Positions 2,076 to 32,070 of a stretch of 64,000 bases of DNA are shown piece by piece. The stretch is from the NCBI GenBank assembly GCA_963845755.1, contig CAWJTV010000036.1:96001-160000 (forward strand). The letters are read 5' to 3'. A model generated the notes under the pieces. It worked only from the letters and a program-made list of their open reading frames with translations, was not told where the DNA came from and made no database searches. How positions within the stretch are numbered: the first letter of the stretch is position 1; every line of letters begins with the position of its first letter. Both the position numbers and the translations under genes were made by a program. Source of the DNA: an uncultured Planctomycetota bacterium. GTDB lineage: Bacteria; Planctomycetota; Planctomycetia; Isosphaerales; Isosphaeraceae.

Positions 2076-3833
2076 TTATTTGGACTTGAGCTCGAGGATC
2101 GGATCGAATGGCGTCGGAGGGGCCTTGAGGCATTCCACGGCCCGTCCCAGGAGCGTCAGACTCGGTAGGTCGTAGGTTCCCCCGGCCCCATTCAGCATCG
2201 GAACGAGAAGCTGGCAGCATTCGCTCCACCTGGCGGCTTCGAAAAGGCCCAATGCACGCTCGTAGGACTCGCTCCGACCCTGCCAATCTCCGGAAGCCGT
2301 CTCGGCGTGAAGCTCATGAAGGTCCACTTCCCCGGCAATCCCCACGACCCGCGTCCGGCAAAGCCGGCGGGTCGCGAACGAGCGGCCTAACAGGTTGCGT
2401 GTCGTCCCGGTGATCAGCAGACTCACCCCCAGGTGCTTGGTCGCCCCCTCGACGCGGCTGGCCAGGTTGACCGTATGTCCGAGCGGGCCGTAATTGAACT
2501 TCTTGTGGCTGCCCGTGTTGCCGACCAGGGCGGGTCCCGAGTTGATGCCGATCCCCAATCCCAGAGATCTCCCGAGCCGTCCTTCCCAGATCCGGTTGAG
2601 CTCTGGCAACCCGTCCCTCATCGCCAGCGCCGCGCGGCAGGCTCGCACGGCGTGATCGGGCTGCTCCAGCGGAGCGTTCCACATCGCGAGCAGTCCGTCG
2701 CCGATATACGTGACGACGACCCCCGCACATTCCATGATCTTGGCCGTCAGATGTTCCATGATCTCGCGAATGAGCTCGCAGGTCTGCCGGGCGGACAGTT
2801 GCTCCGAAAGCGCGGAGAACCCGCGAATATCGGCGAACAGCACGGTGACCTCGCGCTCGCGGCCATCGAGCAATTCGGGGTCGCGGTCCAGCGCGGCGGA
2901 CAGGTCGGGCGTGAAGAACTGCTCGAACTGGACCCGACGCCGGGCGGCCTGGGCCTCGCTCTCGAGTCGTGCCAGCCCCGCCGCCACGGCCGCGGCCAGG
3001 ACCTGGGTCAACTGGGCCTCGAGCGGGCGGATCTCGGGCGAGCGCCCCGTCCCGCGCCGGGCTCCGTAAACCACCCCGATGACCTCCTGAGCCTCGTTGA
3101 GGATCGGCGACGCAACCACGGCGGCCACGCCCAGCAGGCTGGCGGCCGTCGCGTGCGCCTCGACCCCCTGGAAGAAGGTCCGTCGTTCGCGGACGACCGT
3201 CTCCAGGATCGAACGGCTGAACTGATCTTCGGCATCCGCCTGCTGAGGATGAGCGGCCACGCGCACCCAGTCACCCTCTCGCGACAGCAGGACCAGGCCG
3301 ATATCCAGACCGATCAGCTCGACGACGGCCCGCGCGGTCTCGGCGAAGAAGTCGGGCGACGATGCCGCGGCCCGTTCCACCCCGACCAGGGCTTCAAACC
3401 AGCGGGTCAGCTCTTCGGTGTCCGGCGCGTCGCCCAGTCGGGGCACCAGGGTCCGGCCGGCAAGACCGGTGGCGAGGGGTGGGTCGATCGTCCTCAGAGG
3501 AGTCGCTCCTGGCGGCTCCTCGCAAACCGCGCACTCGATCTCGATGAGTGTGTCACCCAGTTGAAGTCGGGCCGGTAGACTGGCGGATCGCTCGCCGCCG
3601 GGCTCGATCAGGCTCCCGTCCGCGAGCCGTACCGTCACCTTCGTACTCAGGTTGCAGAGACGGACTCGGTTCCCCTCCTGTTCTTCCAGGCAGAGCTGAT
3701 TGTTGGAAACCGTGGGGTCCTGGAGCACGCTACGGGCGACATCCCTGCGGGGACCACGCCCGAATTCGAGCGGGCCGTCCCGATGAAGGAAACGCTCGCG
3801 CTCCGTCCGATTGCTCACGAGAATCCACAACAT
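2076..3833 (-). CDS. FHA-like/GAF/class III adenylate-guanylate cyclase domain protein
   Basis: 585-aa ORF; degenerate FHA (FGRG...VSNNQL), GAF-like middle region, cyclase motifs VTVLFADIRGFS, YIGDG, GIGINSG, VNLASRVE. Confidence 0.9.
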   Translation of the reverse strand: MLWILVSNRTERERFLHRDGPLEFGRGPRRDVARSVLQDPTVSNNQLCLEEQEGNRVRLCNLSTKVTVRLADGSLIEPGGERSASLPARLQLGDTLIEIECAVCEEPPGATPLRTIDPPLATGLAGRTLVPRLGDAPDTEELTRWFEALVGVERAAASSPDFFAETARAVVELIGLDIGLVLLSREGDWVRVAAHPQQADAEDQFSRSILETVVRERRTFFQGVEAHATAASLLGVAAVVASPILNEAQEVIGVVYGARRGTGRSPEIRPLEAQLTQVLAAAVAAGLARLESEAQAARRRVQFEQFFTPDLSAALDRDPELLDGREREVTVLFADIRGFSALSEQLSARQTCELIREIMEHLTAKIMECAGVVVTYIGDGLLAMWNAPLEQPDHAVRACRAALAMRDGLPELNRIWEGRLGRSLGLGIGINSGPALVGNTGSHKKFNYGPLGHTVNLASRVEGATKHLGVSLLITGTTRNLLGRSFATRRLCRTRVVGIAGEVDLHELHAETASGDWQGRSESYERALGLFEAARWSECCQLLVPMLNGAGGTYDLPSLTLLGRAVECLKAPPTPFDPILELKSK

Positions 3834-3854
3834 CGGAAACCCATCCTCGGGACG

Positions 3855-5316
3855 TCATCGAGACGGCGGTGTCGGGGAACGCGGCTCGAGTCCCGACGGG
3901 AGCCGGACGGGCTCGAAACCTTTCGGGCTGTCCAACCCGTCCGGGAACACGAGCTGTTCGCGGAGTCCCTCGAGCCGAGCCCGCAGCCGGTCCTGCTCCG
4001 CTTTTCGCCCGGGAGCCAGATCGATCCAGGACTGGCGCAGCGGCACCAGGGCCAGGTAGCGCTGGGCCGCCTCGTCCCAGCTCGCGATCCGATTCCCGGC
4101 ATCCTCACGATCGAGCCGGCCGATCAGCGTCTGGACATCATCGGCATGGAATCGCCTCGAGGCGACCGCCCTGAGGCATTGGTCCACCGAGGAGGTCGCC
4201 TCCCGCAGAGCGACCCGGACGGCCTTCACATCGGGGACGTCCTTCTCCATCTGGGCGGACAGCCGGCGCAGCGATTCGAGGGACGGCCGGGCATCCGGCT
4301 CGGCCACGATCTCCTCGACCAGGGGGAGCGTCCAGGAGCCCCAGCGCGGTGAGCCGATCGACGTCCCCGACGGTCGAGGTGCACGACGCCAGGCCTGGTC
4401 GCGCAGGTCGTGATGACAGGAGAAGCAGCCGTACTCGGTGAACTCCGGCCAGGGCGCCGCGTGCTGGTCAACCGCGTCGATCCGCGATCGTAACAGCTCC
4501 AGCGACGACTTCATGACGGCCAGCCGGCCGATCGCCCAGGCGTGCGCCGGGAAATCCACGGCGCGCGCGGGAGAGGACGGGGCCGTCGGCGTCGCATTGT
4601 CCCCCTTCTCAACCCAGTGGGGCGGCATATTATCCAGATAAGCCGAGAGCTCGAAGATCAGCCGCGGGTGGCCGGCGGCGATCAAGTCGTGGTTCACGTC
4701 GCGGACCGGCTGCCCATTGCCGGCGCCGGCGCCGACATGGCAGCCGGCGCAGAGTCTGGGCGCGATGCACGAGATCCTGGGCATTCACCAGGCCCAGCGC
4801 CTGCTTCTCGGGCCAGGGCCGGTTTCTCCACCCAATCGTCGTATGCGGACCGAGCCAGCGCCCGGAACCGCCATGACAGGACTCACAGCCCACGCCGTCG
4901 GAGTCCATCCACGCCGTCGTCGTCAGCTCCGACGCCGGGCGCGGCGTCGTGTGGCAGGCCAGGCAGCGATCGTCCCGATGAGCGGGCTTCACCCGGGCCG
5001 GGTTGACCGCGAGGTTGCGGACGATCCGATCCGAGCGTGGGTCGAACAGGACCTGGTAGGCTCGGGAATGGGCGTCGTCGGCCAGCCAGGTGGTGTGCTC
5101 ATTCCCGAGGATCGTCGAGAGCGAGGACTCTCTCGGCGCGATACTCCCGTGACAGGCCGTCGCCGAGCACGAGCCGGACCCTCGGAACTCGGATCCGGAC
5201 GGCGCCTCCACCGTATAAAGCCGGCGAACCTGACGACCCGGCGTCTCATCTCCGCGGCAGAGCACGACGAGCCAGACTGCGGCCAGCAGTAACGGACTCC
5301 AGCGTGCTCGACTCAT
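3855..5316 (-). CDS. Exported multiheme (about 5 hemes) cytochrome c, c554/c552-like; one frameshift near 4752
   Basis: Signal-peptide-like start MSRARWSPLLLAAVWLVVLC with GGAGG upstream; CSATACH, CLACH, CESCH in ORF 4630..5673 and CAGCH, CFSCH in ORF 3855..4784. Confidence 0.85.
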
Positions 5317-5546
5317 CACGGCCTCCGGAGGTTCGGCGCGATACGCGTTCGACCGATGGGACGGACTTCGTCCCCTGCCAGGATAAGGTGCGGATGGAGA
5401 AAAAGCCACGAATGGCTGAGGTCCCGGCTTTCTTGTAATATAACATTCGACAAGAATCCGGGCGGATCCGATTACGGGATATGACGCCGGCAAGAAAGTG
5501 GGTCGGGCTTGAGAGTCTTCTTCGGTAAGATCTCTGCGCCGTGCGC

Positions 5547-5916
5547 GCATCTGGGGAATTCTGGATTCCCGATTCGAGATTCGAGATTCCCGATGGGACG
5601 ATTTCTGGATCCGGAATCTCGAATCTCGCATCGGGAATCCCTCTGGGGTTGCGGGCGAAGGCCACGTTAGCATCTGGGGAAATCCTGGATTCCCGATTCG
5701 AGATTCGAGATTCCCGATGGGACGATTTCTGGATCCGGAATCTCGAATCTCGCATCGGGAATCTCTCTGGGGTTGCGGCCGAAGGCCACGTTAGCATCTG
5801 GGGAGTCCTGGATTCCCGATTCGAGATTCGAGATTCCCGATGGGACGATTTCTGGATCCGGAATCTCGAATCTCGCATCGGGAATTCCTCTGGGGTTGCG
5901 GCCGCAGGCCGCGTTA
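5547..5916. repeat. Three tandem ~123-bp palindromic units (REP/BIME-like)
   Basis: Units start at 5547, 5670 and 5794. Each has GATTCCCGATTCGAGATTCGAGATTCC...GGAATCTCGAATCTCGCATCGGGAAT (hairpin) and a GCGGCCGAAGGCCACG-type element. Confidence 0.95.
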
Positions 5917-5972
5917 GGCCTGAGCCCGACCTACGGTACCGGGAGCGACTGATTCGAGGTGGTAGAGGCGGC

Positions 5973-6949
5973 ATGCTGGTCTTCGACCGTGACAACTGGC
6001 CGTATCATCGCTCCTGGTGTCTCGCCATCGTGTTGGCGACGGCGGCGGGCGCGATCTGGTACGTCATCTACGGGTTCAGCTCGGGCTCCTGGCACTGGCC
6101 CGGCGGCGGCAGTCCGCCCGGCTTCGCGTACGGGGCGCTGGGCGGCGCGATCATCCTGTTCGAGATGCTGCTCTGGCCGCGCAAGTCGCTCTGGCGGGGA
6201 TGGCGATTGGGCCGCACCAAGTGGTGGATGACGGGGCACATCTGGCTGGGCCTCCTCGCGCTCCCCTTGCTGTTGCTGCACGGCGGGTTCCATTTCAATC
6301 CCGCCACCTCCACGCTCGCCGCCGTCCTCATGTGGTTGCTGGTCGTCGTGGTCGGCAGTGGCATCTTCGGCCTGGTCGTTCAGAATATCGTCCCGCGGCT
6401 CATGCTCGAGCGGTTACCGGCCGAAACGATCACCTCGCAGATCGACCGCGTGCTGGCCCAGTATCGCGATGATGCCGAGTGGTTAGTGCGCGCCACCTGC
6501 GGGGACCCGCCGGCCGATGGGCTGGGCGAGGCCGCCCGTGAGGCCCCGGGATTCGTCGCGATCGGTACGGTACGGCAGGTCGGGCGGGTGCAGGGCAAGG
6601 TCGTCCAGGCCGCCTTCGAAGCCGGCTACGTGCCCGAGTCCGAGCCGCTGCTCGCGTTCTACCGCGAGCTGGTCGAGCCCTACCTGCGGCGAAGTCCGGG
6701 ACGGGGCTTCCGCTGGGATCGTCGCGGCGGACCGCACCGCTGTTCCAGGCCCTCAAGGATCGCCTGCGCCCGGAGGCCCATCCCGTCGTCGATCGACTGG
6801 CCGACCTCTGCGACCAGCGCCGCCAGTTCGACCTCCAGGCCCGTCTACACAGTTGGCTGTTCACCTGGCTCGGCGTCCATGTCGCCCTGTCGGTCGCGCT
6901 GCTGGTATTGATGGTCATCCATGTTTTCTTGGCGTTGAAGTATGTCTGA
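5973..6949 (+). CDS. Polytopic membrane protein, putative di-heme cytochrome b (ferric-reductase-like TM); frameshift near 6700
   Basis: MLVFDRDNWPYHRSW...; several hydrophobic helices; HIWLGLLALPLLLLH and, after the shift, HVALSVALLVLMVIH (both H-x13-H); ends ...ALKYV* overlapping the next start. Confidence 0.75.
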
Positions 6950-8527
6950 AACGAGCAAGCAGCGACAGTCGCGGATCGACCTGGGCTATTATCGGCTCCC
7001 CGACGCCCAGTCGCGCCGGCGGCGCTGGCTGATCCTGTCGGCCCTGCTGATCGCGGTGGCCTGGGTCGCGGCCGCACCGATCTGGAGCCAGGGGCGGGAC
7101 GGCGCGCGTGCGGTTCTTCCAGCAGGCCGGGCTGGCCTCGAAAGGGCCGCTGGCCCGGCCGCACGCGATGTGGGAGTCCAACTGCGAGGCGTGCCACGTC
7201 CCGTTCACGCCGGTCAACGGCTCGCGGTGGTCGCCGTCCTTGCGGAGCGGGTCGCATGCCGGCGAGGATTCCTGCCGGGCCTGCCACGCCGGGCCGAGCC
7301 ACCACGCGAGCCAGCTCGCGCGGGACGTCCCCTCGTGCGCCGAGTGCCATCGCGATCATCGCGGTCGGGACGCCTCGCTCCTGGTCATGGACGACTCGGC
7401 CTGCACTTCCTGTCACCGGGACCTGTCCCAGCACCGCGACCCGGCCGCCGGCCGGATGCTGACGGCGGCCTCGGTGACCCGGTTCGGCGCCGACCCGGCC
7501 CAGCACCCCGGCTTCACACCGCCGCTTGGCGTGCCGGGGCCCGACTCGGGGCGGATCAAGTTCAGCCACGCCCGGCACCTGGCCAATGGCCTGACGATGG
7601 CGAAAGACGGCGTCCCGTTCACGTTCGCCAGCCTGGACGAGCCGGACCGCGCCCGATACGGCTGGACCACCGGCCGGGACAGCGAGTCCATCCAGCTCCG
7701 GTGCGACTCATGCCATCGACTCGATGGCGGGGACAAGGAAAGCCCGGCCCTCCCGCGTTCGCCGGGTGCGTCGATGCGGCCGGTCACGTATGAGACGGAC
7801 TGTCGCGCCTGCCATCCGCTCCCTTTCGACGCGAAGGATCCTCAGCGGAAGATCCGTCATGGCCTCCGGCCGCGAGAGGTCGTCGAGGAGCTGAATCAGC
7901 TCTACACCGCACAGGCGGTCAAGTCCGATCCCGCCCTGCTCCGCCGGTTCGTGCCTCCGCGGCCGATCCCCGGCCGGCCCGTGGCCGAGGAGCAGGCGCG
8001 AGCCGAGAAGGCCGCGGCGGACAGGACGCTGTCGGCCCTCAAGCGGCTCTTCGGCTCGGCCGTCGACGAGGGGGTGAGGAGCAGCCAGGGGCTCCCGATG
8101 GGGCGAGGGGGCTGCGTCGAGTGCCACGAGCTGACACCTTCGTCCCGGCCGCTGGTGGACCTGGACGCGGTATCGAGCCTGGAACTCAAGCCGGTCGTCG
8201 TGCGGTCGCTGTGGTACGAGAGCGCCGCCTTTAACCACGCGGCCCACCGGGCGCTGGAGTGCGCGGGCTGCCACGCGGGAGCCTCGGAGTTCGACCGACC
8301 CGGCCCGCCTGCTGCTGCCGGATGTCGGGCAATGCACGAGTTGCCATGCCCCTGCGACAACCCAGGGGAGTCGTCCGCAAGGCGGGGCCGGTGTATCGTG
8401 CGTCGAGTGCCACCGCTATCATGACGGCGATCATCCTACCCGGGGGGTCGGGTCCACCGCGCGCCGGGGCTCGGTGGAAATGAGCCTGGAGCAGTTCCTG
8501 AGCGGTGGACCGCCGCGCGGGCGGTGA
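6942..8527 (+). CDS. Membrane-anchored decaheme cytochrome c (c3-like); frameshifts near 7105 and 8290
   Basis: N-terminal RRRRWLILSALLIAVAWVAA anchor; CEACH, CRACH, CAECH, CTSCH, CDSCH, CRACH, CVECH, CAGCH, then CTSCH and CVECH in the shifted frame ending TGA 8525-8527. Confidence 0.85.
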
Positions 8528-8577
8528 GCTTTGCCGATGGCGCGGGCGGTGAGCAAGGCGACCGGATAACTTCGGAT

Positions 8578-8866: not shown

Positions 8867-11800
8867 ATGCCGCTGTACTCGGGACGCTATGCTCAGATCC
8901 TCGAGGAAGAACAGGATCCGGAACGATTCATCCGCCGCTTCCTGGCCGTGCTGGAAGCCGACCTGCGTGAGACCGCGCTCCTGGGACTCGCGGCCTGGCA
9001 TCAGGCGAGTCTCCCGAAGGAGCAGTGGCAGGCCGCCTTGCCGAACCTCTTCAAGGCCATCGCCGGCCTGCAGAAGCCCGCGTACGGGCACTGGAACGGC
9101 CTGCTCTATTCGCTCCGGGACGCGTTGAGGCTGGCACAACCGGCGCCGGGTTCCCCGTCGGACGCGAATGCGCCGTGGATGCTGGAAGCGATCCTCGCCT
9201 GGCTCCGGGAGCCGACCGAGCCGCTGGTGGCCGCGGCCCTTCGGGGCATGTCCCAGCCGCTGGGCTACTCGCTGCCGGGTGATCTCAGCCGATGGCACGC
9301 GATCAGCCTGACGGTTTGCCTGCGGAACCGGATCGCGCACGAGCATCCGGTGGACGCCTGGTGGGCGGCCATGGCCCCGGGAGTGATTCGGCTGGCGTCC
9401 AGCCTGGCCGCCCTTCCCCCCTGCCTCGATTCGGGTCGGTTGGTCTATCCGAGCCCGTGGTTCCTCCAGCGCGAGGGCGTCCTTTATGCCTTCGGCGGGA
9501 TCCAGGGGGATGACGTGATCTACGCCGCGCCTGGGCTCGCCGCGGTGCGCCTGCCGGCGACCCAGACAGAGATCGTCCGGGCGTTCCAGCACGCCCTCGG
9601 CCAGGCGGAAATCCAGCAGGCGGCGTTCCGGGAGATGCTCTCGAAGCTGGCCCCCGAGGAGATCCGGGGCGTGTTGCTCGGCGACTTCCTCCTGGGTCCT
9701 CCGGTCGCCCAGGGCGGGTTCGCGGTCGTGCACAAGGGCTATCAGCTCAGCACGCAGCGGAAGGCCGCCCTCAAGGTCTTCCCCGACGCGTTGACGGAGT
9801 CGAAACGCGCGCTCATGCGGAAGGAGGCGACCCATCTGGGGGCGTTCAACACCCCCGAGATCGTCCGCCTGATCGGGCTCTATGAGAACGTCCCCTGGGT
9901 GATGCCGGCTGATATCAGCCTGTCCGCGGAACCCTGGTTCCGGACCTACAAGAAGACGTCGCCCTTCAAGACCTTCCTGGCGATGGAGTGGGTGGACGGC
10001 GAGAAGCTCGATGATCTGTATCGACGGCCCGCCGCCGCGGCGCCGGCGATCCCCGTCCTGGTGGAGTGGTTCGCGACGGCCGCCGAGGCGCTGGCGAAGG
10101 TGCACGCCCATCCCGGCGGCCTGATCCATCGCGACGTCACGCCGAACAACCTGATGGTGACCGTCAACGGGCAGCTCAAGCTGATGGACTTCGGCATCGG
10201 CGCGGAGGAGCCGAGCGGCGCGACCTGGTGACGCGAACCCAGCTCGGCGTGGGCACTCCGGCCTACATGGCACCCGAGCAGCTCGACGAGGTCTGGACCG
10301 ACCGGTCCGACGTGTATGCCCTGTGCGCGACGTTCTACGAGTTGTTCGCAAGAAAGCGGTTGTACGACCACGATCGCTCGGACATGGCTACCGTCAACAA
10401 GAAGAAGCGCGACGGCGATCCACCGGATTCGCCGCGGCGCGGCAATCCCGAGGTCCCCTGGGAGATCGACACCCTGCTCCTGGGCAGCCTTCGGAAGGAA
10501 CCGGAGCTGCGTCCGGCGAGCCGTGAGCTGGCCGATGACCTGCGCCGGGTTCAGGCCAATCAGCCGATCCACTACAAACGGCCGCCATTTCGGCGACGGA
10601 CGGCCTTGTGGTATCGGAGGAACCGCACGGCGGTGAGGGCCGCCCTCGCCGCCTGCGTCCTCCTCGGCGGCCTCTCGACGGTCCTCGGCATGCTCTGGTT
10701 GGGAGAGCAGCGTCGGTCCACCCAGATGACGAGTCAGGTGGGGGGCCTCAAGCAGGCGGTCGATGTGAGCGAGCGGCTGGCCGAGGAGCGATCGAAGGAA
10801 GCGGCGCTGCGCAAGGGGCGCGAGCTTCGCACACGCTACCTGATCGAGGTCAAGGACGCCTACAAGGCCTGGGAGGCGAATCATCCCGATGAGGCGCGAG
10901 TGCTGCTCGACCGGCTGGTGCCCGCGAACACCGGGGGGCCCGACCTGAGGGAGGTCGAGTGGTATTACCTCGACTATGTGCTGAGCGCCACCAGCCGCGA
11001 GCTGAATTTTGGTGGCCAGGTGCACGCCGTCCGCTTCAGCCCCGACGGGAAACGTCTCGCCGCATTGGGGATTGCCGACGACGACTCTTACTGCGTCAAT
11101 CTCTGGGAGTCTCCCGGGTTCAGGCACGAGCGAACGCTGGTGCTCGAGCCCAAGGCGACCTCCGGGAACATTTCGCCAGTGCGCAGTGCGCTCGTCGGCC
11201 CGGAAAACCTGGCCTTTAGCCAGAAGGGATCGCTGCTGGCGGTCACGTATGGATTCCGGCAGAAGACCCGAATCGACGGCATCGTCAAGGTCTGGGAATG
11301 CGACACCGGCAGACAGGTCTTTTCTGCCTCCGACGCCGGTATCGCGGGTGGGGCGGTGCTCTTCAGCCCGGACGGCCGGTACCTGATCGCCGGCGGATAC
11401 AACAACGCGGCCCTGGTCTGGGATCTCCCGGGCGGAAGCCTGCGATGGACCCTGCCGGGCTACGACTCGAGCGGAGTCGTCGGTACGCCTTCGGCCGTTG
11501 CGCACAAGATCGCGCGCCCCGTATTGAACTCGGCAGTCGGGCTCGAGGCTGACGTACGATTGATGCCCTCGGTGAAAGACGTCAGTGAGATCCCGAGACA
11601 GGGCAAAGACCTGCTCATCGTGGCTGAGGTGGATCACGTGCTGCATTTCCGCATATTCAACCGCGCTGGCTACCTGGCCGGGAACAATTTTGAGAGCAGG
11701 CTGCCGTACCGAGCCCGGCAAATCGAGGATCTCCGGAAGCAACTTGTGGACTTGTGGCCTCCTCACCAGCTTACCGAAAGCGAAAAGGGCCGGGTCATCA

Positions 11801-13362: not shown

Positions 13363-13394
13363 GGGCGGACGTTGCAACCCGCCACCACCACGTG

Positions 13395-13658
13395 ACCACG
13401 GGCGTGAGCCCGTGGTTCGGATGGGGAACCTCCAGCCTCGCACGACAGTGCGATCCGCGCAGCCGCTCGGATCGGGCTGACGCCCGAGCTTGGAGGGTTT
13501 CACCCACCCGACGAAAGTCCGATGCCGCTCTCGGGCCGTTTCTGATCCCACTTCGGAAGCGAGCGTCGCAGTCGCTTGCGAGGACGGCATGCTGTGCGTA
13601 TCGTGATATGACGAGGACCGGCAATCGGCCGGTTGCAGGGACGGAGCACGTCCCTACT
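13395..13658. repeat. Cluster of short REP-like hairpins in an intergenic region
   Basis: ACCACGGGCGTGAGCCCGTGGT hairpin near 13395; AGGGACG-GAGCA-CGTCCCTAC hairpin near 13637-13657 (GTAG end on the minus strand). Confidence 0.5.
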
Positions 13659-13714
13659 GGCGAAGTTCACTCGGGAATGATAGCGAGGTTCGCCGAGTGT
13701 CGGGAGCGGCGGAC

Positions 13715-18057
<4,343 letters not shown>

Positions 18058-18170
18058 CTCGATCCATATCAATAGTCTACACTCAGTCAACGATGGACGT
18101 GTGAAGGTGATCAGTCGATGACAAGCCCTCTGAAGGAATCCTCGCAGCAGGAAAAGCGGAGGCGCGCTGA

Positions 18171-18360
18171 GCGGCCTGACGGGCCGCGGGAGCCCAGCCC
18201 GGGGTGAAACCCCGGGAGTAGAGCGGCCACCTCCAGCCTCTGGCGGCCTGAAGGGCCGCAGGAAGCGTCTCCCGCACCCTTGCAGGGTGCACCGCAAGGG
18301 TCCTAACCGAGGTTCCCGGGGTTTCACCCCGGGCTGGGCTCCCGCGGCCCTTTGGGCCGC
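18171..18360. repeat. Palindromic REP/MITE-like element with 47-bp terminal inverted repeats
   Basis: 18171-18217 GCGGCCTGACGGGCCGCGGGAGCCCAGCCCGGGGTGAAACCCCGGGA matches the reverse complement of 18314-18360 with 3 mismatches; internal hairpins are also present. Confidence 0.9.
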
Positions 18361-18486
18361 ATGTCACCGCGATCCCGATCCAGGAGCCCCGGCCTGAGGG
18401 AAAGTGTCGTTCGAGAGACGAAAACTCCTTCGGTTGTCGAGTTCGCGACGATCGTGACGTCCGTCAGAGGTTCGGGAGCCGTACGC

Positions 18487-22901
<4,415 letters not shown>

Positions 22902-23011: not shown

Positions 23012-25267
23012 CTATGAAACGCCGCCGAACCTCACGAAGATCTCCTCAATCTCCTCAGCCGTGAGTAGCGTCCCCGATTGGGGCGAATCGACGATGGTGA
23101 ACCCGTGGGCGCGGCCGTCGTACCAGGGGTCGGCGTTGTCGTAGCCGGCGCGGAGGGGTTTGGGCACGCCGGTGGCCGGGTCGGTGACGCGGTCGTCGTC
23201 ACCGTAGACCTGCCGGCGACGGTCCGATTCGGCCCGGTCGAGGAGGGCCGCCAGGCCGCGGAGCGAGGCTCCGCTGTCGGGCGATACCGAGAGGATGCAA
23301 CGACGGGGGTCGCGCGGCGACTCGGAGATGAACACCGAGAGGCCCAGGAATCCCTCGCCGCCCGGCGATCGCTCCCGATCGCTCCGGGCCCAGTCCTTGA
23401 AGAACATGCAGCGCTCGGGATCATCCAGGTTCTGGACGTCGCGGACCAGGAGTGCGTCCAACTCCACGCGTCCGCCAAATTGCCCCGGGAAGCTCAGCCG
23501 CGCTTGATGCGCGTGGGACGACGGGTCGGCCAGCTTGCGGCGATAGCGGTTGACGTCGGCCAGGACGTCTTGCCGGTCCTGTTCGTCGAACAGGCCGGGG
23601 CAGGCGAAGGCGTCGATCGACGGCAAGGCCCGCCCATCGTGCCGACTCCGTTCCAGGATGAACGCGACCAGATCCAGCCCTTGCTGGACACACTCTCTCC
23701 AGTACGCGTGATCGGCCGGCCGGCCCAGGCGTCCGTGGCGATTGAGCAACTGCATGTAAGCCGCGTAAGGCGCGAACGGGTTGCTCAAGGAGTGGCCGAT
23801 CGAGCCCTCGTCGATCTTGTCGGCATAACGGGCCAGGGCCTCGGTGCCCAGGGGGAATTCGCCGGTCGTGAGGACGGTGACCGCCAGATAGGCCGAGGCG
23901 ACCGAATCGAAGTCGGGCGACTCGTGAAGCACGATGGTGAACGGTGCGGTCGGGTCGAGCTGGGGTTGCACCGCGCCCAGTACAAGCTCGGGGTTCGAGC
24001 TGACGAGCTGGGTCGTCGAGCCTTCGTAGGCTTCCAGGTGATGGTGGTCGAGCACGCCGGGCCGGAGGTCGTTGCCGACGTCCAGGAACAACCGGCCCGG
24101 GGCCGGCCCCCCCTTCGGCGCCGAGGAGCCGGGGCCGACAAAAACGAAGCGGATCGCATCGCGGCGGACGAGCGGCAAGGTCGTGGGCATGGTGGTGACC
24201 TTTCTCCGGCGCGGCGGACCGGACGGCGCGGCTCCCGGCCGACCCTCCAGGTAGGCATCGAGGTCCGCGGCGAATTCGGCCATGCCCGCGTACCGGTCTT
24301 CGGGCTCGCGGGCGCACGCCCTGAGAGTGATGGCTCGCAGGGCCGGGTCGACCTCGAGCGGAGCGGGCGAGGACGAATCGAGAATGGGGGTGTCTTCGTC
24401 GGGATCGGCCGGGGCGGTTGGACCGGGGGTCGCCGTCGGTGTCCCGCGTTTGAGCAGGTTGACGAGCACACAACCGAGAGCGTAGATGTCGCACTTCGGA
24501 CCGATCTTTTCCGGGTCGCCGAAGAGCTGTTCGGGCGCCATGTAACGAACGGTGCCGGGCCGGACGTTGGTCGAGCTCAGTCGCGTCGCCTCATCGTCCA
24601 GCCGGAGCGCCAGTCCGAAGTCGATGACGACCGGGGTACCGTCGGGCGTGATGACGATGTTCGAGGGCTTCAGGTCGCGATGCACCACGTTCTCGCCGTG
24701 GGCCGCCGCCATGGCGATGGCCACGTCCCGGACGATGGCCGCGCTCTGCCAGGCATTGAGGTTCGTGACTTCCGACAGCGGCGTCCCCGGGACATACCGC
24801 ATCACCAGGTAGTGTGTGCTGGCGACCTGGCCGAGATCGATCACCCAGGCCAGCCCGGGGTGAACCAGCCGCGCGGCATAGCGGGCCTCGCGGCGGAATC
24901 GCTCCATGAGCCGAGGCTTGGCGAGGAAGTCTCGGCGGGGGATCTTCACAGCGACGTGGATCTCCAGCTTGAGGTCTCGGGCGAGAAAGACCATTCCCAT
25001 GCCGCCCCCGCCCAGATACTCCAGAAGCCGATACCGGCCGAACTCCTGAGGAAAAGGGCCCTTCGGATTCGGCATGAGGTCGGACCCGCTGGAGGATCCC
25101 GGATCGCCGATATCCCGCTCAGGGTCGGTGGTCGGGTCCGACATCACTGGCGAGGAAACCGAGGTCGGTTCATCCGGATTGGCCGACGGGCCGATAGGGC
25201 TCGATGATGGAGGTTCCGGCGTTGGCAAGGTGGGCTCGAGACCGTCCACGGAAGGCCCTCCAAACAA
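23012..25267 (-). CDS. Ser/Thr kinase fused to a C-terminal DHH/MYG1-like putative phosphoesterase domain (start uncertain)
   Basis: 751-aa ORF; LGGGGMG, VAVK, HRDLKPSN, DFG, YMAPE; C-terminal FLDVGN...VLDHHH, VLHESPDFDSVAS, DKIDEG, WYDGR. Confidence 0.8.
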   Translation of the reverse strand: MFGGPSVDGLEPTLPTPEPPSSSPIGPSANPDEPTSVSSPVMSDPTTDPERDIGDPGSSSGSDLMPNPKGPFPQEFGRYRLLEYLGGGGMGMVFLARDLKLEIHVAVKIPRRDFLAKPRLMERFRREARYAARLVHPGLAWVIDLGQVASTHYLVMRYVPGTPLSEVTNLNAWQSAAIVRDVAIAMAAAHGENVVHRDLKPSNIVITPDGTPVVIDFGLALRLDDEATRLSSTNVRPGTVRYMAPEQLFGDPEKIGPKCDIYALGCVLVNLLKRGTPTATPGPTAPADPDEDTPILDSSSPAPLEVDPALRAITLRACAREPEDRYAGMAEFAADLDAYLEGRPGAAPSGPPRRRKVTTMPTTLPLVRRDAIRFVFVGPGSSAPKGGPAPGRLFLDVGNDLRPGVLDHHHLEAYEGSTTQLVSSNPELVLGAVQPQLDPTAPFTIVLHESPDFDSVASAYLAVTVLTTGEFPLGTEALARYADKIDEGSIGHSLSNPFAPYAAYMQLLNRHGRLGRPADHAYWRECVQQGLDLVAFILERSRHDGRALPSIDAFACPGLFDEQDRQDVLADVNRYRRKLADPSSHAHQARLSFPGQFGGRVELDALLVRDVQNLDDPERCMFFKDWARSDRERSPGGEGFLGLSVFISESPRDPRRCILSVSPDSGASLRGLAALLDRAESDRRRQVYGDDDRVTDPATGVPKPLRAGYDNADPWYDGRAHGFTIVDSPQSGTLLTAEEIEEIFVRFGGVS

Positions 25268-25627: not shown

Positions 25628-27515
25628 TCAGGAGGTCTCGCCCACCACGTCCCAGACCGGTTGTTCGCCGAGTTCTTCCAGGCCCTTGGGCAAGATGGTG
25701 CGAGGCGAGTCGTCGCGGTATCGGAACCGGCCTCGCACTTCGTCGTGCGTCCGCCGGCTGATGCAGGGGATACCCGGCTGGGCCTCGCTCTCCAGGCGAG
25801 CTCCCAGATTGACGGTCGTCCCGATCGCGGTGTAATCCATCAGATCGTAGGTGCCGACGTTCCCCAGCACGGCGTCGCCCGTGCTGATGCCGATCCGGAT
25901 GGCGAAGGGACGCAGGCCGAGGATCGTGCGCGGCTCGTTGAAGTCCGCCATCTCCCGGCAGAGATCCAGGCCGGCCGAGACGGCGCACGCGCTGCGTGAT
26001 GATGTCCGCGGAACATCGCCATGAAGCCGTCGCCGCGGAAGACGCTCACCAGGGCGTCGTGCCGGCGGAGCGTGGCGACCATGTCGGACATCATTTGATT
26101 GAGGGTCATCATGACCACCTCGGGCGGATTGTCGAGGGCATAGGACGTCGAGCCCTTGAGGTCGAGGAACAGCACCGTGAGCGGCTCGGTCGTCCCGGCG
26201 ATGAGCGAGTCGGTCTCCTCCGGCATGCCGCGGCCCCGGACACGGCGGAAGATCCGGGCGGAATACGCGTCGCCATTGACGACCTTCAGCTCCTCGCCGA
26301 TCTGCCGGACCAGATGGGCGCGGCGGCAGGATTCGGCCAGGTCCAGGGCCGAGAGGTACTCACGCGTGGTCAGCGGCCGTGGCTCGCCGGAGGCACGGGA
26401 CAGCCGCGCGATCTCCCACTGCGTCAGGGCCTGCTCGGCCTGTTCTCGCGTCCGGGTGAAATGGTCGAGTGCGGCACGGAGCTTCTGCTTGGCCTCGTCG
26501 TACCGGCCCTGCTGACGGCGGATCATCCCCCAGGATCGGTTGACGTGGGCCAGCCCTTCCGCGAACTCGACCCGACGAAAGAGGTCCTCGGCCTGCTGGG
26601 CCACGGCCTCGGCGGCCTCGACTTGATCGGTCGCCAGGTGGAGCAGGGCGCGATCCTTGCGGGCATAGCCTTCGCTGACGGCCCAACGCCCGGTCGAGGC
26701 GCGAATGCTCGCGTCGAGCCAGCCGGTCGCATCCTCCCAATGCCCGCGCGCTTCGCTCGCTCGGGCGGCCGCGGCGGCGCGGTTGCCACGCTCCAGCGCG
26801 ATCCGCCCGAGACTGTTCTGCATCAGCGCCTCGCCCCATCCGTCGCGCGTGTTCTGCGCGATGGCCAGGTCTTCCAGGAAGCACTTCTCGGCTTGATCCA
26901 GATATCCCCAGTCGAGATGAAGCCGGCCGAGGTTGCCGTAGCTGACCGCCAGGCCGGCCTGATCATCCCATGCCTTCTTGCGCCGATCGCTTGCCGGAAG
27001 AACTCCTCGGCGGCGTGAAAGTTGTCCCGGGCGGCGTAGACCATGCCGAACGTGTCGAGGATCCGCCCGGTGCCGTAATGGTCCCCGCCCAGCAGCCGGA
27101 GCGACTCGCGCAATTCGCGCAGGGCGCCGTCCAGGTCGCTCTTGTGGAACGCGTTGGCCCCGCGAATGTGGGCCACGGCGGCCCGAAGCAGGGTGCTCTC
27201 CGGCTCCGGATCGACCGAATCGAGCAACCGCTCGGCCTCTTCGAACTGCCGCTGACGCATCGCGAGGAACGCCTGGATAAATCGTCTCCATCTCTGGGCC
27301 GCGGGACTCTCGTCGGCATCTTGCAGCAGCGTCTGCGCCGCGTCGTACGCGCCGCGTTCGGCGGCCATCCAGCCGGCGAAGAACGCCAGATCATTCCTGC
27401 GCCCGGCGTCGGACGTCGCGGCGATTTCTTCCCTCAGCTTCTGCAAGCCCATCTCCCAGCCGTACTGGCGGAGCAGGGACAGGACTTTGTCGCCGGTCTC
27501 CGGTTGATTGATCAT
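25628..27515 (-). CDS. TPR-repeat class III adenylate/guanylate cyclase domain protein; frameshifts near 26980 and 25985
   Basis: MINQPETGDKVLSLL...; TPR-like helices (LAVSYGNLGRLHLDWG); LTVLFLDLKGST, FRGDG, RIGISTG, DYTAIGTTVNLGARLE. Confidence 0.85.
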
Positions 27516-27523
27516 GAGTGCTT

Positions 27524-30070
27524 CTACCCTCGTGCGTCCTGTCGACGCACCAGATCCAGCAGCTCCGTGCCTTTCATACGATGGGCGGCGTCGTGGGGGC
27601 AGGCGTAGACGCAGCTCGGCTCCGCGTTCGGGCCGAGGCTGGTACACAGGTCGCAGGTCGTGGCCTTGCGCACGTCGGCCTTCCTCGACTTGTCGTACTG
27701 CTCGACCATGTTGATGTTGCCATAAGGGCAATTCTCGGCACAGAGCCCGCAGCCGATACACCAATCCTCGATGACGATCTCACCTCCCGATCCGGGCGAC
27801 GATCGTCGCCGGATCGATCCTACCGGACAGCCGACCATGCAATACGGATCGAGGCACGAGCGGCACGAGCTGGCCACGAGGAACTGGTCGAACCGCAGTC
27901 CTTCGCGGATCAGGCGGGTCACGCCCTGGTGCGTGTCGGCGCAGGCCTTGGTGCATTCGTCGCAGCGGGTGCATTTCACCAGGTCGAGGACCAGCAGGCT
28001 CTGGGCCTCCATCAATCCCTGGTCCAGGAACGACGCGAGCGGCGTCTCGCGAACTTGTTGCAGGTCGCGCAGGTTGGCCTCGATGCGCTGGCGGGCCTCG
28101 GCGATCACCGCGTCGCGGACGGCGGGCGCCTGGTCGAGGATGGCGCGGAAGTCCGCCGGGCTGATTCGCACCAGGTCCACGTGATCGAGCGCCGTGCAGG
28201 TCGCAACCCGGACGCCGGCCGGGTTCAGCTCGCGCAGCTCGGGCAGGTCGGAGACCACGCCGATCTCGCCGATGTAGCCGCCCGGCCCCACGTAGTTCAG
28301 GACGCGCTCGCCACCGGTCCGTGCCTGCGAGACCTTGACGAACCCGGTCCGCACCAGGTAGAGCCCGTCGGCCGCGGGCGCCCCCTGGCGGAAGATCACC
28401 TGGCCCGGCTCGCAGCGTTGTAGCGAGATTCGCGGCCGCAGATCGTCGACGATCCGTTGAAACCGGGGCTCGTCGTCGCGCAACGGCGCGAACAAGGGGA
28501 TGCTTCGCAGGTGGTTGTCGATGGCGCGCGCCCGGTACTTCGCCTCGAGATCGCGGCGAAACGACGGGCTGCGCTGCATGATGTAGAGCACGTTGCGGAG
28601 CATCTCCAGCACCGTGCAATCCTCCGCCGCGCGGACGGTCGCCGAGTGGGGGTAATGACTCATGCAGGTCATCTCGCCGAAGATGTCGCCTTCGCGCAGC
28701 GTCGCCTGGGGCCGTGCGTAGGGCAAGGCAACCGGGGCGTTGACCGGGATGAACTCGCGCCGCCGATCGTCGGGGCGCGTGGTCATCCGGGTGGTGAATC
28801 GGCCCAGGACGCCCCAGAGGCCGCGCTGGGGCTGATTCTCGACGTGATCGGTCGGGGTGCGGATGTAGATCTCGACCGAGCCCTTCTCGACGAAGAAGGC
28901 CGTCGAGCCATACTCGCCCTCCCGGCAGATGATCTCGCCCTTTCGGAACTCGCGCCGTTTGATCGCCCGGATGTTCCACTGCAGGAACGGGCGCGACACT
29001 CCGCGGAACGCCTCGCGGATCTCCGGGTTCTCGTGCTGGATCAAGCGGTCGACATCGACCGCCCCGCCGCCGGGGAGCTGGGTCTCGACGACTCCGCGGT
29101 GCATCAAGGCGCCGGTGGGGCAGTCGTCGGAGCACTCGCCGCACGCCACGCAGGACGATCCGCCCATCGGGGAGTCGAGGTCGAAGGCGATCCGCGCCTG
29201 ATAGCCTTTGCCCATCCGGCCGATGACGTGGTTCTCCTTGATCACGTCGCAGCCCCGCACGCAGCGGTCGCAGAGGATGCAGGCGTTGTGATCGACGGCG
29301 ATGACCAGGGATGAGTCGTCGCGACGGAGGTCGGCCGCCCGCCCCTCGAACCGGTCCCCGGCCACCCCGAACCGCCGGGCCAGGGCCTCCAGCTCGCAGT
29401 CGCCGGCGCGCTGACGTTCCTTGACGCACGGGGTCGGATGATCGGACATCAGCAGCGACAGCAACGTCGTCACGGCGGACTCGACCCGATGCCGGGCGCC
29501 CGCGTCGGGCGACGCGATGGTGTCGACGATCATCCCGTCCTCGACGCGATGCTGGCACGCGGGGAGGAGCTTGTCGTCGACCTCGACCTTCCCCGTCCGC
29601 CGTCGGAACCGGGCCAGTTGGACGACGCAAACCCGACACACCGCCACCGGGTCCATGTAAGCCGTGTGGCAGAGTATCGGGATCGGGTTATTCGCCTCGC
29701 CGGCCATCCGCTTGAGCGGGCCCACGGAGGGCGAACGGCCGCCCGCTCGCGGGCCGAGATCGGTCCCGTTGCCCTCGACTTTCTCGTAGCGGCGGCCGAC
29801 GGCGTCGTAGATCGTGGTCGGTCGGGGGATGATCTGACCGTCCCCATCATACCTGGGGTCGCCTTGCTCGTCCGTGGCCACCACGGCCTTCTTGACCACG
29901 ACCTCCTCGCCGTCGATTGTGAGCGTGACCTCCTTATCGAGTTCCTCGCGCGTGGCGGCGTCATAGCGGATCAACCGCCCATCGAGATCGCGAACGAATA
30001 GTCCTTCATCCGACCATTCCCATTCGTCGCGATCCTCATTCGGAAGTTCGGCCCGCGGTTCTATGCTCAT
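27524..30070 (-). CDS. Iron-sulfur protein: NuoG/FdhA-like N-terminal [2Fe-2S]+2x[4Fe-4S], two cyclic-nucleotide-binding domains, C-terminal DmsB/NrfC-like 4x[4Fe-4S]
   Basis: 848 aa. ILCH...CRVC...PAC; CILCDRCVRGC; CVACGECSDDCP; ICREGE...FGEM...PHSATVRA; IFRQG...IGEI...RVATCTA; CTRCDECTKAC, CRSCLDPYCMVGCP, CIGCGLCAENCP, CDLC...CVYACP. Confidence 0.9.
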   Translation of the reverse strand: MSIEPRAELPNEDRDEWEWSDEGLFVRDLDGRLIRYDAATREELDKEVTLTIDGEEVVVKKAVVATDEQGDPRYDGDGQIIPRPTTIYDAVGRRYEKVEGNGTDLGPRAGGRSPSVGPLKRMAGEANNPIPILCHTAYMDPVAVCRVCVVQLARFRRRTGKVEVDDKLLPACQHRVEDGMIVDTIASPDAGARHRVESAVTTLLSLLMSDHPTPCVKERQRAGDCELEALARRFGVAGDRFEGRAADLRRDDSSLVIAVDHNACILCDRCVRGCDVIKENHVIGRMGKGYQARIAFDLDSPMGGSSCVACGECSDDCPTGALMHRGVVETQLPGGGAVDVDRLIQHENPEIREAFRGVSRPFLQWNIRAIKRREFRKGEIICREGEYGSTAFFVEKGSVEIYIRTPTDHVENQPQRGLWGVLGRFTTRMTTRPDDRRREFIPVNAPVALPYARPQATLREGDIFGEMTCMSHYPHSATVRAAEDCTVLEMLRNVLYIMQRSPSFRRDLEAKYRARAIDNHLRSIPLFAPLRDDEPRFQRIVDDLRPRISLQRCEPGQVIFRQGAPAADGLYLVRTGFVKVSQARTGGERVLNYVGPGGYIGEIGVVSDLPELRELNPAGVRVATCTALDHVDLVRISPADFRAILDQAPAVRDAVIAEARQRIEANLRDLQQVRETPLASFLDQGLMEAQSLLVLDLVKCTRCDECTKACADTHQGVTRLIREGLRFDQFLVASSCRSCLDPYCMVGCPVGSIRRRSSPGSGGEIVIEDWCIGCGLCAENCPYGNINMVEQYDKSRKADVRKATTCDLCTSLGPNAEPSCVYACPHDAAHRMKGTELLDLVRRQDARG

Positions 30071-30109
30071 GGATCGGGTCCTGATCGGCCGGGCTTCTGC
30101 GTACCAACT

Positions 30110-30165
30110 GGTCAGGCTTTCCAGCCTGAAGCGTGCGGGGAGTCGGGCTGGAAAGCTTGACCTAC
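30110..30165. repeat. GTAG-type REP palindrome overlapping the 3' end of the NuoEF-like gene
   Basis: GGTCAGGCTTTCCAGCCTGA...TCGGGCTGGAAAGCTTGACCTAC, an imperfect inverted repeat reading GTAG... on the minus strand. Confidence 0.75.
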
Positions 30166-32070
30166 GTGAGATTCGTGCTGGTTCCAGTCATGCTCGAACA
30201 GTGAGGCCATGGGCTTGGATGCGGAGGTGCCCAGGCCGCAGATCGAGGTTTGCTCCAGGGTCTCCTGGAGGATGCGCACCAGATCGAACAGCGCAGCACG
30301 CTCCGAGGGGTCGGACGGTCCCTGCGCGAGCCGCTCCCCGATGCGGACGAGCTTCTGGGTGCCGATCCGGCAGGGGACGCACTTGCCGCACGATTCGTTG
30401 CGGAAGAACGTCGTGGCATTGAGCGCAAGGCCGAGCATCTGGACGGCCGGATCGAGCCCCGGGGACCTGGCGACGACCAAGAGCCCGGCCCCGAGCATCA
30501 GGCCCAGCTCATCGAACTCGGCCTTGTCCAGCGGCAGTTCCAGCAGGCTCAGCTCGTTGCGCCCGGCCGGGAAGCTCCTCCGCTGCTTCGCGGGCAGGTC
30601 CGCGGGAGTCAGATTCGCCGGCAGGAATCCGCCCGACGGACCCGAGGGTGCCAGTGCCAGCAGCGGTAGTCCCTTCCGCATGCCCCCGGCCATCGCGACC
30701 AGCTCGCCGACGGTCGTGCCGACGGGCACCTCGTAGACGCCGGGCCTCGCCACGTCGCCGCAGATCGAGAAGAACCGCAGGCCCTTGCCGCGTGGCCATC
30801 GTTCCGGTTTGTCATCGGGCCTTCGACGAGAGACGTACCAGGGGCTGTTCGCCATGCCACTGTCTCGATACCACGCCCCGCCCTTGAGCGCAATCGACGG
30901 GACCCAGGCGAAGGTCTCGACATTGTTCAGCAAGGTCGGCCGGTTGAACAGGCCGTTGGCCTCGATCACCGGCGGCCGGTTGCGCGGCTCGGCCCGATGC
31001 TCCTCGATCGCCTCGATCAGTGCCGACTGCTCGCCGCAGATGTACCCGCCAGGGCTCTCGAAGACCTCCAGCTCGAAGGGCTGGCCGGTCCCCAGCACGT
31101 CCGGCCCGACGACGTCCAGGGCCCGGGCTCGGCGGATCTCCGCCTCGACGGCGCGGATCTGCTCGAAATACTCGTGCCGGATGTAGACGTATCCCCGACG
31201 CGCCCCCACGACCAGCGCGCCCAGGACCATCCCCTCGACCACGAGATGAGGGGCCCGGAGCAGGATCTCGCGGTCCTTGAATGTGGACGGCTCGCTCTCG
31301 TCGCCGTTGCAGATGACGTAGGTCGCATCGGCGCGCTCGGACTCGTCACGGACCTCGCCCCACTTGCTGAATGCGGGGCGACCCGCGCCGCCCATACCGC
31401 GCAGGTCGGACGTCTTCAGGGCGTCGACGAGCGCCTGGCCGACCGCCTTTCGAGCCGCGGGATCCCCGGCCTGCTCGATCGCCGCGGCGAACGCGCGCGC
31501 CGCGGCGTACGGCTCCGGCGGCCGTGCGGCGGGCAGTTCCTCCGCTGGGGAGCCGGCCGGTTCGCCCGGCGTCTCGGCGTGATAGGGGTCGATGCGCCAG
31601 CCCCGCGGCGCGCGATCGACCGGGTCCGGCGGTACCTCGCGGCCGTCGAGGTGCGCCCGGATCAGCTCCCGCATGCGCGCGGTGCGGTCGTCGATCGCGG
31701 TGCGGTCGAGGAACCGCAACTGGTCATGTTGCCCTTTCCGATGCAGCTCGATCAAGACGGCCGGCGCCCCATCGCAGCGGCCCAGGCAGGAGACCCCCTC
31801 GACCTTCACCCGCGACTCGCCGCCGAACTCGCCTGCGACCACCTGGAGACCCAGCAGGCACTCGGCCGCGCCCCGCAGATGGCAGGCCTGGTCCCGGCAC
31901 ACGTGCACCTCGACATCCGGCGGCGGCTCCAGCCGAAAATGCGGGAAGAAGCTGATGACCTCGTGCAGTTGGTGTGGTGGCACGCCGAGACGGTCCGAGA
32001 GGTCCTTGATTTCCTCCGGCGGCAGGTACCCGTGAAGTTCCTGGATCGATCGCAATTGGGGAATAAACAT
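30112..32070 (-). CDS. NuoE-NuoF-like fusion (NAD(P)H-binding FMN/Fe-S diaphorase subunit)
   Basis: Likely start MFIPQLRSIQE at 32070; NuoE CRDQAC...CLGRC; NuoF LRGMGGAG, CNGDESEPSTFKDR, YICGEQSAL, NNVET, ESCGKCVPCRIG, SICGLG. Confidence 0.9.
   Translation of the reverse strand: MFIPQLRSIQELHGYLPPEEIKDLSDRLGVPPHQLHEVISFFPHFRLEPPPDVEVHVCRDQACHLRGAAECLLGLQVVAGEFGGESRVKVEGVSCLGRCDGAPAVLIELHRKGQHDQLRFLDRTAIDDRTARMRELIRAHLDGREVPPDPVDRAPRGWRIDPYHAETPGEPAGSPAEELPAARPPEPYAAARAFAAAIEQAGDPAARKAVGQALVDALKTSDLRGMGGAGRPAFSKWGEVRDESERADATYVICNGDESEPSTFKDREILLRAPHLVVEGMVLGALVVGARRGYVYIRHEYFEQIRAVEAEIRRARALDVVGPDVLGTGQPFELEVFESPGGYICGEQSALIEAIEEHRAEPRNRPPVIEANGLFNRPTLLNNVETFAWVPSIALKGGAWYRDSGMANSPWYVSRRRPDDKPERWPRGKGLRFFSICGDVARPGVYEVPVGTTVGELVAMAGGMRKGLPLLALAPSGPSGGFLPANLTPADLPAKQRRSFPAGRNELSLLELPLDKAEFDELGLMLGAGLLVVARSPGLDPAVQMLGLALNATTFFRNESCGKCVPCRIGTQKLVRIGERLAQGPSDPSERAALFDLVRILQETLEQTSICGLGTSASKPMASLFEHDWNQHESHVGQAFQPDSPHASGWKA

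Follow-up and report, generated by a model that had tools for sequence, protein, structure and literature searches.

The window analysed here is a stretch of 64,000 nucleotides from an uncultured planctomycete of the family Isosphaeraceae (contig CAWJTV010000036.1, here C36, positions 96001-160000; positions without a contig name refer to the window). The source genome of 14.3 Mb is 88% complete, and its nearest named relatives are Planctomycetales and Isosphaeraceae metagenome-assembled genomes at 70-78% identity. In two separate parts, the window contains genes for a candidate electron conduit through the inner membrane. One part, on the minus strand, encodes a NuoE-NuoF fusion (NuoEF; 30112-32070), an iron-sulfur (FeS) protein with two cyclic nucleoside monophosphate (cNMP)-binding domains (27524-30070) and a class III cyclase with a TPR region (25628-27515). 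The other part consists of the genes for a class III cyclase with a GAF domain (2076-3833) and a pentaheme cytochrome c (3855-5316), both on the minus strand, and, divergently on the plus strand, those for an inner-membrane protein (5973-6949) and a decaheme cytochrome c (6942-8527). As explained below, the pentaheme, the FeS-cNMP protein, the membrane protein and the decaheme are referred to as PtdD, PtdE, PtdF and PtdG, respectively. The gene spacings given in a preliminary description of this DNA were verified (intergenic distances of 41, 8 and 21 bp; overlap between the membrane protein and decaheme genes, which amounts to 8 bp), and its domain assignments hold in a Pfam scan of the open reading frames of the window, except that the FHA domain of the 2076-3833 cyclase is not called by Pfam and looks degenerate by eye.

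The locus was compared with 58 loci found with the FeS-cNMP protein (NuoEF-type loci), 32 of which have at least 8 kb of flanking sequence on both sides (well-flanked loci), with 40 genomes or regions of the phylum that carry the core and were hand-picked around matches, and with 121 genomes of the same family, which are related and hence not independent samples. It should be noted that several genes of the locus are frameshifted in the assembly, namely those for the TPR-cyclase (three frames), PtdD (two), PtdF (two), PtdG (three) and the WD40 kinases described below. The genes that are frameshifted here have intact reading frames in relatives, and the gene for PtdE (848 aa) is intact in this genome as well.

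The predicted electron input is NuoEF, which takes the place of PtdC and in which the Pfam domains 2Fe-2S_thioredx, Complex1_51K, SLBB and NADH_4Fe-4S indicate sites for 2Fe-2S, flavin mononucleotide (FMN)/NAD(P)H and 4Fe-4S. Its cysteine ligands and its glycine-rich loop are kept in 38-39 of 39 sequences, and nuoEF adjoins the FeS-cNMP gene in 51 of the 58 loci, including 31 of the 32 well-flanked ones. The second glutamate of the NuoF motif, which we take to discriminate between NADH and NADPH, is a variable position (E in 20, Q in 13, G in 5 and R in 1 of 39 sequences). The best structure matches of the diaphorase parts are HydB, NuoF, formate dehydrogenase and HydA N-termini. The locus thus resembles NuoEFG, HoxEFU and HydABC in its ligands for FMN, 2Fe-2S and 4Fe-4S clusters, but differs from them in that a catalytic domain of the H-cluster, Mo or NiFe type is missing and in that the chain runs on into cNMP domains. 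The absence of such a terminal catalytic subunit, already pointed out in the preliminary description, extends to both the Pfam scan of the window and the recurring neighbour clusters, and the flavin subunit encoded in the window has no Pfam match to an extra C-terminal HydB ferredoxin domain either, which sets the locus apart from electron-bifurcating systems of the HydABC type. As a side observation, the core has pentose-phosphate genes (assigned by eye) as direct neighbours in three to four loci each (L010, L012, L018, L055) and a soluble transhydrogenase-like gene in 5 of the 58 loci (L019, L022, L023, L026, L029), which is a hint at NADPH supply.

PtdE, as delineated by Pfam, alignment and structure comparison, consists of a NuoG/HydA-like head, two cNMP domains and a DmsB-type tail with sites for four 4Fe-4S clusters. 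The head has one 2Fe-2S site, two 4Fe-4S sites and, between its clusters, a degenerate His-ligated site from which the middle cysteine is missing. In 37 aligned sequences, the cysteines of the 2Fe-2S site and of the 4Fe-4S sites, two of them N-terminal and four C-terminal, are fully or almost fully invariant. The model of PtdE matches the tandem cyclic-nucleotide-binding domains of PKG and PKA; at site A the Gly-Glu pair is invariant and the arginine is present in 39 of 40 aligned sequences, and at site B the arginine is present in 33 of 40. Many PtdE relatives lack the upstream FeS head, and hence the cNMP domains need not lie between two FeS blocks, which weakens the earlier idea of a cNMP switch placed in series between these blocks. 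In a tree of 60 PtdE cores, obtained by a quick method, the PtdC-type and the NuoG-head-type PtdE proteins are on separate supported branches, and the head-less forms are nested among the latter.

PtdF is predicted to bind two b hemes. The window copy shows one W-x3-H-x13-H motif in each of its two frames as well as an SGxxG motif, and five hydrophobic segments were counted in the intact homologue of locus L002, which places the histidine motifs on transmembrane helices (TM) 3 and 5 and SGxxG on TM4. The W-x3-H-x13-H motifs of TM3 and TM5, with the putative heme-b histidines, are kept in 20 of 20 full-length sequences, and a basic loop precedes TM3. Both histidine helices would run in the same direction, which suggests one heme near each membrane face. 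PtdF has no Pfam match and no sequence match in the PDB, no Foldseek match of its model reached E 0.001, and one automatic Atlas cluster name reads ferric reductase-like. It shares the bis-His pairs (four heme histidines on TM3 and TM5) with ferric reductase/NOX proteins and cytochrome b561; unlike these, it has five TM with a soluble insert and a decaheme partner, and no fused FAD/NADPH domain. A plasmid search with the membrane protein gave no match.

The preliminary description gave the heme numbers of the two cytochromes correctly, although these are visible only across frames: PtdG, a membrane-anchored periplasmic protein, has ten CxxCH motifs, and PtdD, a c554-family protein by Pfam with a signal peptide, has four CxxCH motifs and one CxxxxCH motif and gives a profile match to cytochrome c554 (1bvb, E 1e-10). 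PtdG has ten further histidines that are invariant among 19 homologues, and PtdD has five such spare invariant histidines. Since these numbers equal the heme numbers, all hemes of both proteins can be bis-His ligated, so both are probably wires rather than catalysts, and a catalytic heme is unlikely in either of them. A second c554-type pentaheme is encoded alone at C11:925295-926959 of the same genome. Between the divergent pentaheme and membrane protein genes (5547-5917), a 124-bp palindromic repeat is present in three tandem copies that are 95% alike; this repeat belongs to a dispersed family resembling repetitive extragenic palindromic elements, with 104 matches in the genome when both strands are counted. 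In the variant loci L080, L087, L088 and L089, 15- and 17-heme cytochromes, one of them fused to FHA, flank the membrane protein and PtdE genes.

Unity of the locus and its relation to PCC4 and Ptd

The preliminary description treated the two parts as one system, and the co-occurrence of their homologues across genomes bears this out; a lack of such co-occurrence, which it had named as a refutation, was not observed. The membrane protein and the decaheme are each found in 38 of the 58 loci and the c554-type cytochrome in 26; in the 32 well-flanked loci the numbers are 25, 25 and 19, with the membrane protein and the decaheme within 10 kb. Of the 121 family genomes, the FeS gene is present in 46 and the membrane protein gene in 47; the two are found together in 41 genomes, and 69 lack both. 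The five genomes with only the FeS gene are 54-81% complete, and five of the six matches in genomes with only the membrane protein gene are divergent. In 26 of the 41 genomes with both genes these are within 50 kb on one contig, and in 12 they are on different contigs. The core is seen in several phyla, and its gene order varies across Isosphaeraceae, Gemmataceae/Pirellulales and Acidobacteriota records. Within this family, a rearrangement such as the 17-kb separation in the window is nothing unusual. Conservation with the core is not seen for the three kinase-WD40 genes, all frameshifted, that lie between the parts as an insertion (8867-22901, plus strand). The NuoEF form occurs commonly among soil-type records of Planctomycetota and Acidobacteriota, named Tundrisphaera isolates included.

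The core of this composition has been named before. He et al. (2017, PMC5566968) described PCC4, which according to the available text comprises a porin together with 4-, 5- and 10-heme multihemes, an FeS gene and a protein of the inner membrane. The locus in the window resembles PCC4, as presented there, in having a membrane protein with five TM, SGxxG and two W-x3-H-x13-H motifs, an adjacent FeS gene (subgroup II), a decaheme, a c554-type multiheme and an occurrence in Planctomycetes. It differs from PCC4 in its NuoEF/NuoG-head input and in that neither a PCC4-type porin nor a pentaheme of the PtdA type was found here. The accessible parts of the same paper do not mention cyclic nucleotides, and they model electron flow in PCC4 as inward to quinone. 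The second description is that of the ptdABCDEFG genes (Elbon, Stewart and Glass 2024, bioRxiv 10.1101/2023.11.21.568154), the function of which is stated in the available text as unknown. The locus shares with them, as far as that text describes them, PtdD, PtdE (cNMP and 4Fe-4S), PtdF (ferric-reductase-like) and PtdG (decaheme). The differences are that NuoEF and a NuoG-like head, which forms part of PtdE, stand in the place of PtdC, and that the PtdE proteins of the present form have four C-terminal clusters, as judged by cysteine count, versus two in the preprint's description, with both cNMP sites usually kept. Neither NuoF nor a cyclase appears in the text available from the two papers, and that of the preprint has no link to a phosphodiesterase or to FHA either.

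By hhalign (99.3%), PtdF and the membrane protein of a full ptdA-G-type locus are homologues, and the gene at the PtdD position of such loci, defined for the cluster as a c554-type tetraheme, is found by the same hidden Markov model as the pentaheme gene of the window. Proxies of PtdA, PtdB and PtdC are present in 9, 10 and 11 of the 40 phylum regions, full ptdA-G-type loci among them. In contrast to PtdD, PtdE, PtdF and PtdG, none of these three is encoded in the window, so full membership of ptd fails. Using tblastn with proxies from ptdA-G-type loci, PtdA and PtdB were not found in the 88%-complete genome, apart from one weak PtdA match (E 7e-6) elsewhere; PtdC is in none of the 58 NuoEF-type loci, and its sole match in the genome is on another contig, C34. 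The preliminary description stated that no characterised system with this composition was known. This stands in so far as the core is functionally uncharacterised, and does not stand in so far as the core of the composition is named in the PCC4 and ptd papers, at least as their available texts present it; in our search of the accessible literature, these two were the only relevant ones.

What varies on this core is the input, as three unrelated NAD(P)H flavoproteins alternate on it. The first is NuoEF with the NuoG-like head, as in the present locus; the second is the FNR-2Fe-2S protein PtdC, present in 11 of the 40 regions; and the third is a Pyr_redox flavoprotein domain that is fused to PtdE in Sphingobium. 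NuoEF and the FNR protein were found together in none of the 58 loci and in none of the 40 regions. The present locus differs from the described clusters in the combination of a NuoEF/NuoG-head input with the Ptd core and in the different barrel/multiheme pair that is encoded nearby.

This pair, together with a gene for an HbpS-like heme protein, is left of the window (C36:65330-89810), where the three genes are scattered by insertions that include a transposase. An alginate-export-like outer-membrane barrel (Atlas 0.95-0.99) is present in 7 of the 58 loci and in 8 of the 40 regions, and a large LVIVD multiheme in 7 and 12, respectively; HbpS-like heme proteins also recur near the core. The barrel and multiheme are unrelated to PtdAB. 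The acidobacterial loci L040, L042, L043, L044, L046 and L050 have another outer set upstream of nuoEF, consisting of a monoheme cytochrome, two multihemes, a TPR protein and a probable barrel.

Cyclases, FHA domains and kinases

The preliminary description coupled each of the two cyclases tightly to a redox gene. In this genome the coupling is evident, two of the six cyclase domains of 14.3 Mb being in this locus (P about 2.6e-4 for two within +/-30 kb); elsewhere it is not tight. Of the 58 loci, 10 have a cyclase close to the core, and in six of the 40 genomes (G002, G068, G072, G076, G170, G246) one is at most 10 kb from the membrane protein gene, against an expectation of 0.58 that is based on 187 cyclase matches, 37 of them outside those listed. 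The six genomes span five families, and in G072 the cyclase is the sole one found. The link between cyclase and core is therefore real but loose: it is enriched about tenfold and present in about one locus in six. The recurrent accessory is the cyclase with the degenerate FHA domain, GAF and class III cyclase domains (2076-3833), homologues of which are beside the core in L001, L002, L007, L009, L010, L030 and L058. A paralogous FHA-GAF cyclase gene of the same genome is adjoined by a second HbpS-like gene (C25:47312-52077). The TPR-cyclase (TPR and class III cyclase by Pfam; intact at 629-667 aa in G334 and G331) was rejected as a part of the core: it is present in 6 of the 121 family genomes, follows PtdE in only two of these (the present genome and G374), and in G334 and G335 pairs with a kinase-DHH gene away from the core. 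A class II phosphodiesterase-like gene is found in 5 of the 58 and 2 of the 40 loci, all but one of which also have a cyclase. Fusions to FHA have been made in separate lineages and concern PtdE (L072, L083), multihemes (L080, L088), the FNR protein (L083) and cyclases (L081, L102).

As to the nucleotide made, the base-specifying residues of the FHA-GAF enzyme of the window are T-G (threonine at the K/E site and glycine at the second), and its close relatives have D-G (four) or N (one). Class III adenylyl cyclases have K-D/T at these sites, and guanylyl cyclases E-C/G. The cyclases of L030, L081 and L102 have a canonical K-T pair, the TPR enzyme has V-T, and the guanylyl cyclase Cya2 has E-G. 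The D-G/T-G pairs of the planctomycete clade are close to that of Cya2, which may be taken as a hint, though only that, at cGMP.

Kinases, which the preliminary description regarded as wired into the system, were rejected as core parts: with 291 tblastn matches genome-wide and a kinase in only 6 of the 58 loci, adjacency is weak evidence. One Ser/Thr kinase gene, about 240 bp downstream of that of the FHA-GAF cyclase, runs off the left end of the window (1-1836, minus strand). Another (23012-25267, minus strand; Pfam) is fused to a domain with weak similarity to DHH phosphoesterases (23012-24166, minus strand). This domain has a permuted motif order and no PDB match; 16 of 18 homologues match Pfam DHH weakly, below the cut-off, and among 186 homologues it is fused to a kinase or a TIR domain. 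Possibly, the DHH-like domain and the TPR-cyclase form a separate nucleotide-signalling conflict module. The N-terminal helical domains of the three kinase-WD40 proteins (8867-9640, 13697-14740 and 18352-19500) contain RNRxxH-type motifs, which may be HEPN-like, and have no Pfam or PADLOC match; a close paralogue is encoded on C22.

Electron flow and alternative explanations

Based on these findings, the locus probably encodes a form of the PCC4/Ptd inner-membrane electron conduit that is fed by NuoEF and has a built-in cyclic-nucleotide sensor, cofactor binding and complex formation being inferred. The chain from NAD(P)H through FMN, FeS clusters and heme b to heme c that the preliminary description proposed fits the conserved ligands. 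NuoEF would oxidise NADH or NADPH and pass single electrons to the NuoG-like and then to the DmsB-type clusters of PtdE, which would reduce the two stacked b hemes of the five-TM protein PtdF. From there, electrons would reach the decaheme, which is anchored in the periplasm, and the soluble pentaheme, and they might continue to the barrel/multiheme pair, the genes of which are 6-28 kb to the left of the window. The tandem cNMP domains would put this outward flow under allosteric control, for which there would be a reason, since outward flow drains reducing power and membrane potential. The nucleotide may come from the FHA-GAF cyclase, which is often but not always encoded nearby.

We consider it quite likely that electrons flow outward. 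The three independent NAD(P)H inputs favour export. At about -320 mV, NAD(P)H can reduce FeS clusters and b and c hemes downhill, and the membrane potential helps outward transfer, whereas inward transfer from Fe(II)-like donors to NAD(P)+ would be uphill twice. No coupling device for such inward transfer is found in the locus. This view may have implications for the PCC4/Ptd family, which two publications list as a candidate for extracellular electron transfer with function and direction unassigned: the swapped NAD(P)H flavoproteins argue for outward flow and define a four-protein set that is open to rebuilding and assay.

More tentatively, the family may be a widespread transmembrane NAD(P)H oxidoreductase the current of which a cyclic nucleotide (in the planctomycete clade possibly cGMP) would switch directly, with a dedicated cyclase, phosphodiesterase and FHA/kinase inputs for control and with export to the surface via either of two unrelated barrel-multiheme pairs. 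If true, the family would amount to a counterpart of NOX or Mtr that is gated by a second messenger and whose flavoprotein inputs are interchangeable. We know of no electron-transfer chain that is directly gated by a cyclic nucleotide, and the literature search gave none.

Several observations weigh against a conduit of this kind. In 3 of the 41 family genomes with both genes the two parts are megabases apart on one contig, and many PtdE relatives have no input gene within the fetched region. An adjacent cyclase is absent from 48 of the 58 and 34 of the 40 loci, and no class II phosphodiesterase was found in the present, 88%-complete genome. The present copy of PtdE is the sole one without the arginine at cNMP site A, having His475 instead, and its AlphaFold model is too poor for placing the clusters (predicted template modelling score 0.45; cluster domains with a predicted local distance difference test below 50). 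The four-helix bundle of PtdF compares with CybB, cytochrome b561 and STEAP4 at Z 9.1-9.8, which is not above the values for unrelated bundles. Finally, the available text of PMC5566968 reads the same membrane protein as possibly quinone-active.

The quinone role proposed there underlies an alternative that we regard as unlikely, namely that PtdF is a quinone-active cytochrome b, that NuoEF/PtdE and the periplasmic cytochromes are each in electron exchange with the quinone pool, for instance with electrons coming in from an outside donor, and that the cNMP tunes one arm. DmsB/NrfC-type ferredoxins do normally dock on quinone-active membrane subunits, and the recurrence of barrel and multiheme partners would also suit a quinone-pool module. 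Against it, two parallel H-x13-H helices would make a through-membrane heme pair as in ferric reductase/NOX domains, and it is the input that varies among three NAD(P)H flavoproteins, with the membrane-decaheme pair fixed; no quinone site has been identified, though none was searched for.

It is improbable that the current is small and serves sensing, the periplasmic hemes reporting the outside redox state to cNMP, FHA and kinase parts that signal. The FHA fusions to PtdE, multihemes, FNR and cyclases in separate lineages, the recurring HbpS-like proteins and the lack of a terminal catalytic subunit are what such a relay might predict; on the other hand, no DNA-binding, kinase or cyclase output domain fused to the core proteins was found in the Pfam scans, and cNMP and FHA domains act as receivers, a role that suits control over the wire better than output from it.

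There is also a slight chance that the family is real but the copy in this genome is decaying, with true frameshifts, a broken cNMP site and insertions. The frameshifts in four redox/cyclase genes and in the kinases, His475 and the insertion of about 17 kb between the parts would agree with this. However, all heme and FeS ligands are retained, and frameshifts are common and also hit unrelated genes (a nonribosomal peptide synthetase (NRPS) region, an SthA-like gene and the LVIVD multiheme), a pattern that fits long-read indel error. A near-identical read contig differs by one base at 25988, near a break in the TPR-cyclase gene, which is weak evidence at a depth of 3.3. A search of sequencing runs listed no RNA dataset and gave only small DNA shares, and the matching contigs did not settle His475.

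Least probable is a defence role, which the preliminary description had raised; here, a NOX-like effector with an infection-triggered cyclase would drain NAD(P)H, depolarise the membrane or make reactive oxygen species: the ferric reductase/NOX-like topology, the conflict-like neighbours (the DHH-like domain fused to kinase or TIR and the kinases with RNRxxH motifs) and the non-canonical base sites of the cyclases favour it, but these neighbours are not conserved with the core, those of relatives are metabolic, and the decaheme occupies the outer heme position where O2 would react. PADLOC gives only generic matches to cyclase, cNMP and TPR domains. In a comparison with Pycsar, where a PycC cyclase is paired with a TIR or TM effector that binds cNMP, these amount to domain-level PycC and PycTIR matches, and the cyclase is absent from most loci. 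The available texts of PMC5566968 and 10.1101/2023.11.21.568154 propose extracellular electron transfer, not defence, and those of two conflict-system papers by Kaur et al. describe no such electron-transfer system.

The right part of the window (32308-64000) contains genes for an HldE-like kinase/nucleotidyltransferase, an MbtH-like protein, PhyH, an amidohydrolase, a glycosyltransferase and a carbamoyltransferase, together with a large frameshifted NRPS cluster.

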